DNA of 64,000 nt from Candidatus Thorarchaeota archaeon (GCA_048882325.1 JBHLRS010000003.1:82279-146278), one strand, 5' to 3'; shown: positions 3,919 through 33,175, numbered from the stretch's first letter. Notes: generated by a model not told the origin, from the letters alone. A program made the numbers and translations.

Positions 3919-4857
3919 ATTTCAGAGCACAAATCAGTATCAGAACCTGAATTACTAGGAGTCATTGATAGCCCCCCTTCAATCCGCTCAATCACTGCTC
4001 TTTCAACTGATGACAGGTGTCTCTACTCAGCAGACGATGATGCTATGATTACCGTTTGGAAGAAATCCAATCTTCGGACCTTTGAACAGTTTCAAAGCAA
4101 AAGCAGTACTTACCTGAAATCACTCCTAGTTGATGATCACTACCTATATGGTGGGACTCTCTGGAATGATTGTAGCATCAAATTATATGACAAATCAAGT
4201 TTGGAACTACTCAATAGTTTTGAGGGATCTCAGGGCACAGTTTTTGCTCTCGTGTCTGACCACAGCAACCTCTTCTGCGGTTCTGGAGATTCAAGAGTGA
4301 CTATTTGGAACAAGGATGACTGGAGTGAATTAGGAAGTTTTAGAGGTCAGAAACACTTCGTTCTCTCACTCTCTATCGATGAGAACTATATCTATGCAGG
4401 AGGAATTGACGATTGCACAAACGTCTTCTCTCGGGATGATCATAGTCAAGTAGTTTCACTAAGAGGGCATGAATCCAATGTTCTTTCGCTGGCTTGTGAC
4501 AAGAGGTTTCTGTATTCAGGTTCTGGCGAACTTTGGTGGGGCGGACCTGGCTCACCGCGACCGCCGCAATTTGAAAGTGCCATTCGAGTTTGGGATAAGA
4601 AAGACTGGAGCTGTGTTGCTATTCTTGAAGGACATACTGACAATGTCAATGCAGTATCTGTAGCCTCCAACTATGTCTTTTCAATCTCTGATGATTCAAC
4701 TCTGCGGATTTATTCCAAAAAGGATTGGAGTGAAACACTCTGCGTACATGTTGATACCAGACGAATCGATGCAATGACATCTGATGATAGGTCAGTCTTC
4801 ATTGGTTGCGCTGATGGAACAATTCGTCAACTATCAAAACATGCTATTATCTCTTAG
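3919..4857 (+). CDS. WD40 repeat beta-propeller protein
   Basis: About 7 repeats of GH...LYSGS.D..IRVWD; the first repeat (SITALSTDDRCLYSADDD) lies upstream of the ORF-track start at 4045, so the start is placed tentatively at ATT 3919. Confidence 0.8.
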   Translation: MSEHKSVSEPELLGVIDSPPSIRSITALSTDDRCLYSADDDAMITVWKKSNLRTFEQFQSKSSTYLKSLLVDDHYLYGGTLWNDCSIKLYDKSSLELLNSFEGSQGTVFALVSDHSNLFCGSGDSRVTIWNKDDWSELGSFRGQKHFVLSLSIDENYIYAGGIDDCTNVFSRDDHSQVVSLRGHESNVLSLACDKRFLYSGSGELWWGGPGSPRPPQFESAIRVWDKKDWSCVAILEGHTDNVNAVSVASNYVFSISDDSTLRIYSKKDWSETLCVHVDTRRIDAMTSDDRSVFIGCADGTIRQLSKHAIIS

Positions 4858-29281: not shown

Positions 29282-29764
29282 ATGACCGATGACAACCTTG
29301 TTTTTCGCAATGCGACTATAGATGATCTTAGCGAGCTAGTGAAACTTTGGTTGGAGTCTGCGCAGTTTCACCAGAGTCTCGAACCTAGGTTTCAATACAC
29401 CTCAGATGCAACTGAAGCCACCGAATCATACATGTCCAAACAAATTAACTCAGAGAAAGCATGTTACCGGGTCGCACAGATAGATGATAGCATTGTTGGA
29501 TACATCGAGGTCTTGGTGACAGAGAGACCACCCATTCATGTTCATAAAAGAATTGGTTACATTGGGTCACTCTACGTGACACCCGATTCTCGAAGAAAAG
29601 GTATTGGTACGAAGTTGTGGCTGTTGGCTTATGACTGGTTGATGAAGAAGGGAGTTCAAGTAATCAATCTCATGGTTGCCTCGAAGAATCCTGCAGCACT
29701 AGAATTCTGGAAAAATCTAAATTTCAGCGAGATAATGGTTCGCCTTGAGATGAATAGTAATTAA
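29282..29764 (+). CDS. GNAT acetyltransferase
   Basis: LYVTPDSRRKGIG, NPAALEFWKNLNF. Confidence 0.9.
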   Translation: MTDDNLVFRNATIDDLSELVKLWLESAQFHQSLEPRFQYTSDATEATESYMSKQINSEKACYRVAQIDDSIVGYIEVLVTERPPIHVHKRIGYIGSLYVTPDSRRKGIGTKLWLLAYDWLMKKGVQVINLMVASKNPAALEFWKNLNFSEIMVRLEMNSN

Positions 29765-30864
29765 ACAGAGCCAGCCTGTTTCTCCTTTTCTTTGTCCAGA
29801 TCCTTGACACGCTTCTCAATACCACCTTCAGCTTTTTCAATTCGCTTCTGAATGTCCTTTATTCGTTTTTCTCGTGATGAGACCTCGTTCTTCATTCGCT
29901 TCTCGGACTGTTGATACACCTTAGTGGCGTCATTCCACTCTTGTTTTGCTAGCCGTAATTGTTCCTCCAAGCTCTCAAAATGAATCCTCTTGACCTCTGC
30001 TACATTCCAGTAGTCCTGAACTTCTGACTCAAGTCGTGAACGAACAGTGTCCAAATCAGAATTGAACTGTGCTAGCTCCGTGTGCAGATTCTTCAGGTCA
30101 TTGACGATACCGATTATTTGTGGGTCTTGTCTGTAATCAGGGTCTGGCAATCCAGATAGAATTGAAGATATCTCAGGAATCGATGAAGCTGTGGGCTTTG
30201 GTGCTGGTCTTAGCGGAGGTGGTGTAAGGGTCGGAGCTTTTGCGGCAACTTTGGTCATAGGCGGTTGCGCAGTTGGTTTTGGTTCTGGAGCTGGTGTCTT
30301 CGCCGCTGGTGGTCCCACAGGAGCTGTTGGCTGTGGTTGTGCTGGACTAGGACTTGGTGGTCCTGTTGCTCCGGGTGGAGCAGACCCAGGTGGTGTAGCA
30401 GGAGCTGCTGTAGGTGGAGCTGACGCAGCAGGCGGTGGAGTGGCCGGCATCGCTGGAGTTGCATCACGTTGAGTTTCCAGCTCTCCCATAAGCTCTTGCA
30501 CCTCACTCGCTCTGAGCATTCTTGTTTCAATGATGCCTTCTCCTTCCTCCTCAATACCGACCTTGTCCGCTTTAGCAAAAGCTTCCATCGCTTTCTCCAT
30601 CTCAGACTTTGGTTTAGTAGTTCCCTCGGCAGCTCTCACGCGGTCTCGGGAGACCTGACTTGGTTTGACCCACTCATCATTGGTGGTCACTCTTGCTTCG
30701 CTTGTTGAAGATACAGGCGGTGGAGCTGCTTGAGGAGTAGGAGTTTCAGCTGGAGAGGAGATAGTCTGCGGCCTTGACTCTACAGACAATAGGTTTCCTC
30801 CACAGCGTATACAGTACTTTCTAGTGGGCTGATTTGCCCTACCACATTTGGGACAGGTTCTCAT
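29761..30864 (-). CDS. Zinc-ribbon + Pro/Ala-rich linker + coiled-coil protein
   Basis: CPKCG..N....KYCIRCG, long Pro-rich tract, C-terminal heptad-rich region. Confidence 0.8.
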   Translation of the reverse strand: MRTCPKCGRANQPTRKYCIRCGGNLLSVESRPQTISSPAETPTPQAAPPPVSSTSEARVTTNDEWVKPSQVSRDRVRAAEGTTKPKSEMEKAMEAFAKADKVGIEEEGEGIIETRMLRASEVQELMGELETQRDATPAMPATPPPAASAPPTAAPATPPGSAPPGATGPPSPSPAQPQPTAPVGPPAAKTPAPEPKPTAQPPMTKVAAKAPTLTPPPLRPAPKPTASSIPEISSILSGLPDPDYRQDPQIIGIVNDLKNLHTELAQFNSDLDTVRSRLESEVQDYWNVAEVKRIHFESLEEQLRLAKQEWNDATKVYQQSEKRMKNEVSSREKRIKDIQKRIEKAEGGIEKRVKDLDKEKEKQAGSV

Positions 30865-31008: not shown

Positions 31009-32595
31009 TTGATGAGTCATGCAATCGAAGCACTCCTTATAACTGACAAAGGTGGAAGTCCGAGATTCTACATGCAACTGGATCCCAAAGCTCTCAATAT
31101 GGATCCGGTGATGGCTTCCAGTTTCTTTGCTGCCATTGACATGTTCTCTAAGGAGGTATTCGATGAGAAAGCTCCGGTTGTCCAGGTTGACTATGGTGCA
31201 CGACTATTCACTTTGATTAATGGTGTAAACACAAACATGATAGCTGTTAGTGTTCAACGGCTTGGACAAGAGTCGATAGACATTCTTGATTCTCTTCTTG
31301 CTGAGTTTGAACTTGACTGGCTTGAAATTGTAGATCCTTTCCAGTTCAGTTTTGAAACATCTTTTGTTGATGTGTATTTGGAGGCATTCGGTGAGCGTGT
31401 TATGGAGAAGCTCTCACTCCGATTACTCGGTGAAACATGGGTTCCTTACTTCACAACAAAACCAGACGCGCTTGAATCTGTCTTCAGTATCCTCATGGAT
31501 TACATTAATGGTTCTAGGAATGTGAAGGAGATAATCGAGGTCAGTGGTCTCTCACGTCGTGAGGTTGTCCTTGATCTCTCAAAGCTATGGGCACATCGAG
31601 TAATTCGATTTCGAAACATGTTCAATTTCAATGACTTCATGACCACTGGAACTCAGTTTGTGAGATATGCACAAGCAACATCCGCTGAAACACAGGATTT
31701 GCAGTCGCTTCATCCTGATATGGCTGGGGTGATCCCACATCTTGCAGGTATGATAGATGGACGTCGAACTGTCCGAGAAATCCTCGCAGTGCTTGGCACC
31801 CGCTATGATGAGAGCGAACTGCTTCGAGCATTAGACTATCTAATTGAAGTTGGAGTGATTGAAGCCCTAACTCCTGAAAAAAGGCGAATTCTCCTTGTAA
31901 AGGAGGCTCTTGAGCTCGCAATCAGAGTGGCTGAAGGGACTTACAACGTTGCAGAGGCAACCAATGCATTGCAGTTTGTTATGAAGACTAGTAAGACCCC
32001 TGAGGCCCTAAGTCAGATTCAACTCAAAGATGGTAAGTGGAAGGTTGACTTTGATTTCAAGATACTCGAAGGTCTGAACCATAAACGGCTCATGTTACTA
32101 TTTGGGGAATGGATGAAGATTCTTGCCCAGTTCGTCAATGCATTGAATCCCGTCAAACTGAACCTGTACATCGGAAATCTGACCACTGTGATTTCGCAAA
32201 GAATAATCTGTCGATACTCAGCATTCGACCTAAGAGGGTTCGAGGAATTTGCTTATTGGCTGGAGATACTAAGTACCCCTACGAAACCTCACGTTGGACC
32301 GATTGAAACCAGTCACCTACGGATTGCATGGTCAAACGCTTTGGAGGAATTGGGGTATCTTTTAGTAACCCGCGGCCACATCATTTACAAGTCTGAGAGT
32401 ATTACACAGATTCGGTCAACGTCTGGAACCCCACTCATAGACCTTCTTCCAACAGAGTGGGTTGGACGAGACCGAATAGAGACCTTTGAGCGAATAATGG
32501 TGGAATATGCAAATCTAGGTCCAGCAGCAAAGCTGACATTACTTGTCCTTGCGACTCAACGTGGTATCTTGATACCCAAAGAAATCATCATTTAG
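31009..32595 (+). CDS. Longin-like domain + tandem wHTH protein (NPRL2-like)
   Basis: N-terminal IEALLITDKGGSPRFY...FFAAIDMFSKEV longin pattern; two I(N/D)G.R.V.EI wHTH units. Confidence 0.7.
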   Translation: MMSHAIEALLITDKGGSPRFYMQLDPKALNMDPVMASSFFAAIDMFSKEVFDEKAPVVQVDYGARLFTLINGVNTNMIAVSVQRLGQESIDILDSLLAEFELDWLEIVDPFQFSFETSFVDVYLEAFGERVMEKLSLRLLGETWVPYFTTKPDALESVFSILMDYINGSRNVKEIIEVSGLSRREVVLDLSKLWAHRVIRFRNMFNFNDFMTTGTQFVRYAQATSAETQDLQSLHPDMAGVIPHLAGMIDGRRTVREILAVLGTRYDESELLRALDYLIEVGVIEALTPEKRRILLVKEALELAIRVAEGTYNVAEATNALQFVMKTSKTPEALSQIQLKDGKWKVDFDFKILEGLNHKRLMLLFGEWMKILAQFVNALNPVKLNLYIGNLTTVISQRIICRYSAFDLRGFEEFAYWLEILSTPTKPHVGPIETSHLRIAWSNALEELGYLLVTRGHIIYKSESITQIRSTSGTPLIDLLPTEWVGRDRIETFERIMVEYANLGPAAKLTLLVLATQRGILIPKEIII

Positions 32596-32659
32596 TTGTG
32601 CATTTCGTCTGAAGAACTGTTATCTAAGAAAATTGAAGAAACCTATGTGGTGACCGTGA

Positions 32660-33175
32660 ATGAGCCCTTCCTATCTATTGAAAATTGTCACAGTTGGAGC
32701 TGCCTCAGTTGGGAAAACTAGTATTATCATAAGATACTCAACAGGCACGTTCCGTGAACATTACTCTCCAACACTTGGTGTGGGTTTTGCATACAAGAAG
32801 ATGGAGGTCGATGAGGACTCCGTGAACCTACAGATTTGGGACCTAGGCTCGCAGGACTTCCTTGAGCGGACGCGTGCCAATTACTACCTGGGAGCTCAAG
32901 GTGTTGTCTTCATGTTTGATGTCACATCTTGGGAGTCACTAAATGAAGTCATTGATTGGAAGAAAGAAGTCGACAGAAATCTTGATGATTACAAAGCACT
33001 TCTGGTAGGAAATAAGACCGACCTTGCAATGGAGAGGGTAGTTTCCACTGAAGAGGGTCAGAAGATTGCGAAGCAAATGGGGGTAGACTACATAGAAACG
33101 TCAGTTCGTCTTGACATGAATGTGAATACTGCCTTTGAGATGATAGCAAGAAGTATCATTTCATCGTTCCACTAA
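32660..33175 (+). CDS. Rab-like small GTPase
   Basis: G1 GAASVGKT, G2 SPTLGVGF, G3 WDLGSQ, YYLGAQG, G4 GNKTD, G5 ETSV; no C-terminal Cys motif. Confidence 0.93.
   Translation: MSPSYLLKIVTVGAASVGKTSIIIRYSTGTFREHYSPTLGVGFAYKKMEVDEDSVNLQIWDLGSQDFLERTRANYYLGAQGVVFMFDVTSWESLNEVIDWKKEVDRNLDDYKALLVGNKTDLAMERVVSTEEGQKIAKQMGVDYIETSVRLDMNVNTAFEMIARSIISSFH

Follow-up and report, generated by a model that had tools for sequence, protein, structure and literature searches.

An NPRL2-like protein and its neighbouring Rab-like GTPase in Thorarchaeota: a conserved gene pair and putative dedicated switch module

The window considered here is a stretch of 64,000 nucleotides from Candidatus Thorarchaeota archaeon (GCA_048882325.1, JBHLRS010000003.1:82279-146278), a Thorarchaeota-type Asgard archaeon whose closest named relative is 'Candidatus Thorarchaeota archaeon AB_25' (93% identity). 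On its plus strand it carries a gene for a protein resembling eukaryotic NPRL2, followed by a gene for an atypical Rab-like small GTPase. The open reading frame (ORF) of the NPRL2-like protein extends over positions 31009..32595 and encodes 528 amino acids from TTG 31009 or, more likely, 527 amino acids from ATG 31012; the latter start codon is preceded by a Shine-Dalgarno-like GGTGAT site, and the resulting length is that of most orthologs. The ORF is strongly conserved, with a mean column identity of 65% over 28 orthologs, and is therefore a genuine gene rather than a fortuitous ORF. It is separated from the GTPase gene (32660..33175, +; 171 amino acids) by a spacer of 64 nucleotides (32596..32659, +), in which a GGTGA ribosome-binding site is found 6 nucleotides before the ATG of the GTPase; this site is consistent with the location of both genes on one transcript. 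The spacing and the common strand agree with the preliminary description of the window, and the motifs quoted there were all found at their positions when the translation was checked. VPYFT starts at residue 145 (nucleotide 31441), YGARLF comprises residues 62-67, residues 160-209 read ILMDYINGSRNVKEIIEVSGL...NMFNFND, and residues 248-284 read MIDGRRTVREIL...LDYLIEVGVI.

According to an AlphaFold 2 (AF2) model built on the 28 orthologs, with a mean predicted local distance difference test score (pLDDT) of 76.5, the NPRL2-like protein is composed of five parts, namely a longin domain, a pair of winged helices, a mainly helical region that includes a single beta hairpin, a poorly ordered linker, and a helical tail. 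The longin domain (residues 4-138; 31018..31422, +) has the topology beta-beta-alpha-beta-beta-beta-alpha-alpha and can be superimposed on solved longins with Z 10-12 and a root mean square deviation (rmsd) of about 3 A over 110-123 aligned residues, many of these longins matching equally well. A profile of this domain alone found no solved longin among the PDB sequences, and by sequence the longin is not specifically NPRL2-like. The VPYF linker and the first winged helix occupy residues 145-213 (31441..31647, +), and the second winged helix occupies residues 226-286 (31684..31866, +). They are followed by the helical domain (residues 289-422; 31873..32274, +), in which the helices 358-378 and 412-422 and a DLRGFEEFxxWLE motif form the predicted GTPase-binding face, and by a fused tail domain (residues 444-528; 32338..32592, +), which occurs as a separate protein of ~105-109 amino acids in paralogous and distant modules. 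When the C-terminal half was modelled alone (pLDDT 82.7), Foldseek gave no match in the PDB (best E 0.4), and VIA yielded only Z <= 5.7, which is the noise level for helical proteins, with NPRL2 and NPRL3 not among the matches. As a side aspect, both winged helices carry an (I/L)DGxx(T/N)(V/I)xxI motif that gives weak matches to PqqD-type domains, which act as recognition elements (RRE) for ribosomally synthesized and post-translationally modified peptides (RiPP) (PqqD E 0.003-0.005; LynD, 5sxy); winged helices of the NPRL2 type may thus be related to peptide-binding RRE domains.

Eukaryotic NPRL2 is built from a longin domain, followed by the VPVF and ILPYIDG motifs and winged helix-turn-helix domains; with NPRL3 it forms the core of GATOR1/SEACIT, which acts as GTPase-activating protein (GAP) for RagA/Gtr1. 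An exhaustive representative search revealed a wider archaeal family of proteins of about 400-420 amino acids from Thor, Loki, Heimdall, Hodarchaeales and Harpocratesius genomes, reaching down to 16-20% identity. A profile made of 30 members of this wider family, searched against the PDB sequences, matched human NPRL2 with E 6.3e-8 (profile positions 127-285 on NPRL2 residues 159-328) and yeast Npr2 with E 0.03. Both winged helices are covered by the NPRL2 alignment, as are VPvF and ilpyIDGfrhIqkI, the motifs that the preliminary description had named for NPRL2. When the PDB sequences were searched with the single sequence or with an ortholog profile, nothing was found, and only the wider-family profile reached NPRL2. 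On the structural level, 13 Foldseek matches of the whole model had E <= 1e-3, and these top 13 ranks were all NPRL2/NPRL3 chains of GATOR1/SEAC, aligned over 350-490 columns with a low global template modelling score, since the domain orientations differ. VIA-align of the whole model retrieved mostly generic longins, with NPRL2 chains at Z about 10 (rmsd 11-13 A, about 240 residues). In Pfam, HTH_NPRL3 was matched below threshold only (residues 150-186; E 0.007 for the single sequence, E 2.4e-4 as the best value in the family), and NPR2 (PF06218) gave no match at E <= 1 in the 28 orthologs, nor at E <= 0.1 in the 30 wider members. Look-alikes in the ESM Atlas were confined to archaeal clusters without names. 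Given the family-profile and Foldseek matches, sequence profile and model alike support that the portion after the longin is homologous to that of NPRL2 and that the domain order is shared, as had been proposed in the preliminary description. The kinship with NPRL2 is real, but it has been published already at the family level: an Asgard 'NPRL2-like' family with a longin and an NPRL2-type C-terminal region has been catalogued in most Thor and a few Loki metagenome-assembled genomes (Liu et al., bioRxiv 10.1101/2020.10.19.343400, Fig. 5c), and on the grounds of architecture and distribution the present family is regarded as identical with it. The text of that source makes no mention of a GTPase encoded downstream, of an additional helical domain, of the tail protein or of a mode of binding. 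What is added to that text here is the tail protein, the pairing with an atypical Rab-like GTPase, which is strict and co-duplicated, and the predicted binding via a non-NPRL2 helical domain with clade-specific conservation.

The partner gene encodes a Ras-superfamily G domain only (Pfam Ras E 1.2e-46), with Rab3/Rab35/Rab1 being the closest solved relatives (E 1e-36 to 1e-34; Rab3B E 3e-36). It possesses the P-loop GAASVGKT (GxxxxGKT), switch I HYSPTLG with Thr38, switch II WDLGSQDF, NKTD and ETSV; its G3 motif is DLGSQ and not DxxGQ. The match to Gtr1_RagA (E 4e-4) is below the cut-off, and a Rag-type C-terminal roadblock domain is not present in the 171 amino acids. The sequence ends with ...SIISSFH and thus does not contain the C-terminal Cys prenylation motif of eukaryotic Rabs, as has likewise been reported for other Thor Rabs (Tran et al. 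2024). Among the 22 Ras-like paralogs of the genome, only the two linked to NPRL2-like genes have G[AS][AS][SA]VGKT, a switch I of (S/A)PTLG and a switch II of DLGSQDFL, while all others display G[DE]GxVGKT and DxxGQ. The NPRL2-linked GTPases carry Ala or Ser at the position of Ras Gly12 and Ser at that of Gly60, and these substitutions are invariant in 22 orthologs.

The linkage of the two genes is conserved, which bears out the corresponding expectation of the preliminary description. In 30 fetched loci, a GTPase ortholog (67-95% identity) is located 70-140 bp downstream of the NPRL2-like gene; the two apparent exceptions (L016 and L017, genomes G002/G001) concern an extra paralog, with the true ortholog pair adjoining elsewhere in the same genome. 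When the 85 species genomes of the family were searched in full, both genes shared contig and strand in >70 instances. A survey of 400 species genomes of the phylum showed relatives of the NPRL2-like protein in 75, with 65 of the 85 genomes of the window's own family having one and sparse occurrence elsewhere; both genes are co-present or co-absent genus by genus, both being missing in g4, g10, g13, g14 and g15. At locus L035 of a Loki-like genome (40% identity), the distance to the downstream GTPase gene is 1 kb, and the gene in between (L035:6724-7521) encodes a 265-amino acid stand-alone copy of the C-terminal half (residues 284-522, i.e., helical domain and tail; 34% identity). A second, canonical Rab-like GTPase is encoded upstream at that locus (4067-4711).

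The window's own genome contains a second module on contig C66 (L042:1492-3673), consisting of a 422-amino acid core ending with a TGA stop, an in-frame tail ORF of 109 amino acids homologous to the fused tail (blastp E 4e-15), and a GTPase that is 58% identical to the one in the window and has the same DLGSQ motif. The split between core and tail is genuine and not a matter of read-through, since core and tail ORF are in different frames in the relative L046. As the GTPases of this second (B) type are 91% identical among themselves and 58-59% identical to those of the A type, the whole module was evidently duplicated as a unit.

A complex of the full-length NPRL2-like protein with the GTPase, GTP and Mg was predicted at 1:1 stoichiometry using custom alignments. 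The prediction passes with an ipSAE of 0.73 (runs 0.78, 0.73 and 0.72), the best control scoring 0.00; the runs agree in >= 57% of contacts, with a partner pLDDT of >= 86. On the side of the NPRL2-like protein, the predicted interface comprises residues 293, 362-377, 409-420, 425-433, 454 and 458-459, and on that of the GTPase residue 16, switch I (34-43), the interswitch (45, 56, 58) and switch II (65-80). The contact would thus be made by the C-terminal helical domain, beyond the stretch aligned with NPRL2, with tail residues 454 and 458-459 included, and it contains no longin residue. Conservation was compared among 26 A-type, 27 B-type and 19 distant proteins, the last having no GTPase neighbour or being encoded beside a di-iron protein of the ODP type. 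Both GTPase-linked clades have K370, A373, Q374, R409, G410, E412, E413, W417 and R293 without exception or almost so, while the distant clade varies at these positions, with for example E, D, S or N in place of R409 and K, R, Q or V in place of A373. This loss is position-specific, since the structural positions W368, G16, P18 and E419 stay conserved there. On the opposite side, the contacted GTPase residues S36, P37, L39, Q65 and F67 sit in the very motifs that set the two NPRL2-linked GTPases apart within the genome.

The most probable explanation, to which a probability of roughly 0.6 is assigned, is that the two genes constitute a dedicated Thorarchaeota switch module, with the NPRL2-like protein binding its own Rab-like GTPase and reading or setting the state of the latter. 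Homology, linkage, co-duplication and clade-specific conservation are observed, and direct binding of the two proteins is most likely, judging from the predicted complex. In the proposed mechanism, the helical domain would hold switch I, the interswitch and switch II in a clamp formed by two of its helices together with its invariant DLRGFEEFxxWLE motif, the tail domain assisting to some extent. Because the switches would be clamped directly, the NPRL2-like protein would read or set the nucleotide state of its GTPase; longin and winged helices would probably serve dimerisation or partner docking, as in GATOR1. A regulator, acting as a GAP rather than as a guanine nucleotide exchange factor (GEF), is favoured over a pure effector, because P-loop residue 16 and catalytic Gln65 are within reach of the predicted face, on which invariant Arg, Lys and Gln are also located; for the direction of regulation we rely on this geometry by inference. 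On the model, R293, R409, K370 and Q374, all of them invariant, are candidate catalytic residues. Several points weigh against this explanation. The binding is read from model confidence only, and the calibration of the ipSAE mark (58 of 80 solved complexes attain it, as do 2 of 110 mismatched pairs) is rough for this case, since custom alignments were used and GTP and Mg were riding along. The position of R409 is taken by Ser in the GTPase-linked protein P0125 and by Ile in the stand-alone copy of L035. Longins are dimeric in known systems while the model is 1:1, and a second, longin-type contact may exist. Finally, contacts of helices with switch I, interswitch and switch II are also the binding mode of Rab effectors, and neither Foldseek nor VIA against the PDB revealed a recognisable GAP or GEF fold in the C-terminal domain.

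These last two points, together with the inclusion of GTP and Mg when the contacts were modelled, would equally fit a GTP-specific effector or scaffold, which leaves the nucleotide state unchanged while its longin and winged helices signal onward. Such a role would accord with the linkage of core and tail to ODP (PF19583) genes in Heimdall, Hodarchaeales-type and Loki relatives, where the input would come from a di-iron protein and which suggests a hub with exchangeable inputs. Effectors, however, seldom touch the P-loop residue 16 and the catalytic Gln65, both being part of the predicted interface along with the invariant Arg, Lys and Gln, and the altered catalytic site of the GTPase (Ala at Gly12, Ser at Gly60) suggests the need for a dedicated catalytic helper, so that a pure effector is deemed possible but doubtful. 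By far the least probable explanation, and a very remote one, is that of a merely conserved neighbourhood without physical interaction, in which the winged helices would, for instance, bind DNA as part of a transcription factor. The winged helices do match MarR, TrmB and HTH families weakly, and the products of adjacent genes often do not bind each other; yet the strict same-strand adjacency with ribosome-binding sites, the co-duplication and the genus-level co-occurrence, the interface-specific conservation on both proteins, and a complex prediction that passes against controls of 0.00 all speak for an interaction, and the homologous winged helices of NPRL2 make protein contacts in GATOR1.

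The preliminary description had proposed a two-gene module of GTPase and regulator, possibly ancestral to the GAPs and GEFs of the GATOR1/FLCN/C9orf72 type, and had suggested that an Arg such as that of YGARLF be looked for in the active site. The homology to NPRL2, the linkage and the predicted binding are supported; the YGARLF Arg is not. In GATOR1, Arg78 of NPRL2 is the arginine finger for RagA, and by analogy the longin, probably as a dimer, would dock on the GTPase and supply such a finger. The presence of a longin fold in the AF2 model (Z 10-12) and the homology of the subsequent domains to NPRL2 would be compatible with this mechanism, and the 1:1 model of the complex does not include a dimeric longin platform. 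The Arg in question, R65, is however His in 7 of 26 orthologs (19 having Arg), and in distant relatives its place is taken by Gln, Lys or His; no Arg is invariant in residues 1-140 of the 28 orthologs, and R65 is outside the predicted interface. In the model, R65 is located in the beta3-beta4 turn, and given the strand order 2-1-5-4-3 of the profilin-like/longin fold, this turn and the beta1-beta2 turn would lie at opposite ends of the sheet. It is in the beta1-beta2 turn that GAP-type longins have their GP motif, next to the Arg finger (PMC12290439). At this place, before strand 2, the archaeal protein has kept a G16-x-P18 turn resembling the GP motif, both residues being conserved in all three clades compared, albeit with one extra residue (GxP instead of GP). 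Together with the failure of the longin-only profile to find a solved longin by sequence, these findings make a longin-based GAP of the GATOR1 type improbable.

In comparison with NPRL2-NPRL3 (yeast Npr2-Npr3), the core of GATOR1/SEACIT, the archaeal protein likewise consists of a longin followed by tandem winged helices and is also linked to a small GTPase, here by gene position, with two paralogs per genome. Differences are the missing invariant longin Arg, the missing Pfam NPR2 match, and an extra helical-plus-tail region of 240 residues, through which the GTPase is predicted to be contacted. As client there is a Rab-like GTPase of 171 amino acids without roadblock domain and not a Rag heterodimer, and no DEPDC5 partner is known for the archaeal protein, a search for DEPDC5 not having been made. 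MglA-MglB and other pairs of a GTPase with a roadblock/longin protein resemble the Thor pair in that a small Ras-like GTPase gene adjoins that of a roadblock/longin-type partner; MglB, however, touches MglA via a roadblock dimer, whereas the contact of the Thor pair is predicted to occur via the helical domain. Asgard archaea contain dozens of small GTPases and longin/roadblock proteins. Their genes are rarely found in operons, so that gene arrangement cannot tell which regulator belongs to which GTPase (Tran et al. 2024). The Thor pair is a rare matched couple, being strictly linked, co-duplicated, co-distributed and predicted to bind, with one side being a homolog of a GATOR1 subunit. It makes testable whether NPRL2-type proteins worked with small GTPases before eukaryotes, and it is also a warning that the GTPase contact may differ from the longin Arg-finger mechanism assumed by analogy.

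Distant family members from Heimdall, Harpocratesius, Loki and a metagenome adjoin a gene for an ODP-type di-iron protein (PF19583) and not a GTPase gene (L043:1534-5224, L044:2854-5248, L045:4001-6387 and L047:3001-5374). The ODP gene overlaps by about 10 nucleotides a gene for a protein of 105-109 amino acids, an arrangement indicating translational coupling. This small protein is homologous to the fused tail (E 4e-8 to 2e-16; blastp 4e-15 to 4e-8 for the small ORFs of L042-L045). The three-gene module of ODP, tail protein and NPRL2-like protein of other Asgards thus has the same core (24-33% identity over residues 1-420) with a separate tail, but it contains the di-iron ODP in place of the GTPase, and the GTPase-contact residues are unconserved there. 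No ODP module was found in the window's own genome. Since distant cores adjoin ODP and a small homolog of the tail, the NPRL2-like core and the tail together resemble a platform whose partner is either a dedicated GTPase or an O2/iron sensor. A farther-reaching scenario, regarded as speculative and on balance rather unlikely, would have the helical domain as a GAP/GEF of new fold on an NPRL2-type scaffold and a docking site, served by the tail, that takes up a Rab-like GTPase in Thor and a di-iron O2/iron sensor in Loki, Heimdall and Hod; the core would then be an ancient hub with exchangeable inputs, of which GATOR1 would be the eukaryotic descendant. At locus L043, two NPRL2-like paralogs flank the ODP gene.

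Further observations concern the surroundings of the pair and additional copies of the family. Divergently transcribed from the NPRL2-like gene, positions 29761-30864 (-) of the window encode a zinc-ribbon/proline-rich/coiled-coil protein of 367 amino acids. This gene was considered as a member of the module and rejected; it is placed outside the conserved module because it is syntenic only in close relatives (the clade of >= 89% identity). The extra paralog at L016 and L017 represents a third copy of the fused NPRL2-like gene in one Thor clade (61% identity), with no GTPase gene beside it; in the copy of L017, the position of R409 is occupied by Lys. In the genome of the window, two more distant genes of NPRL2-like architecture (P0162 type, 25-36% identity) are located on contigs C22 (27793-28947) and C8 (79314-80426), and therefore at least four proteins of this architecture are encoded there.

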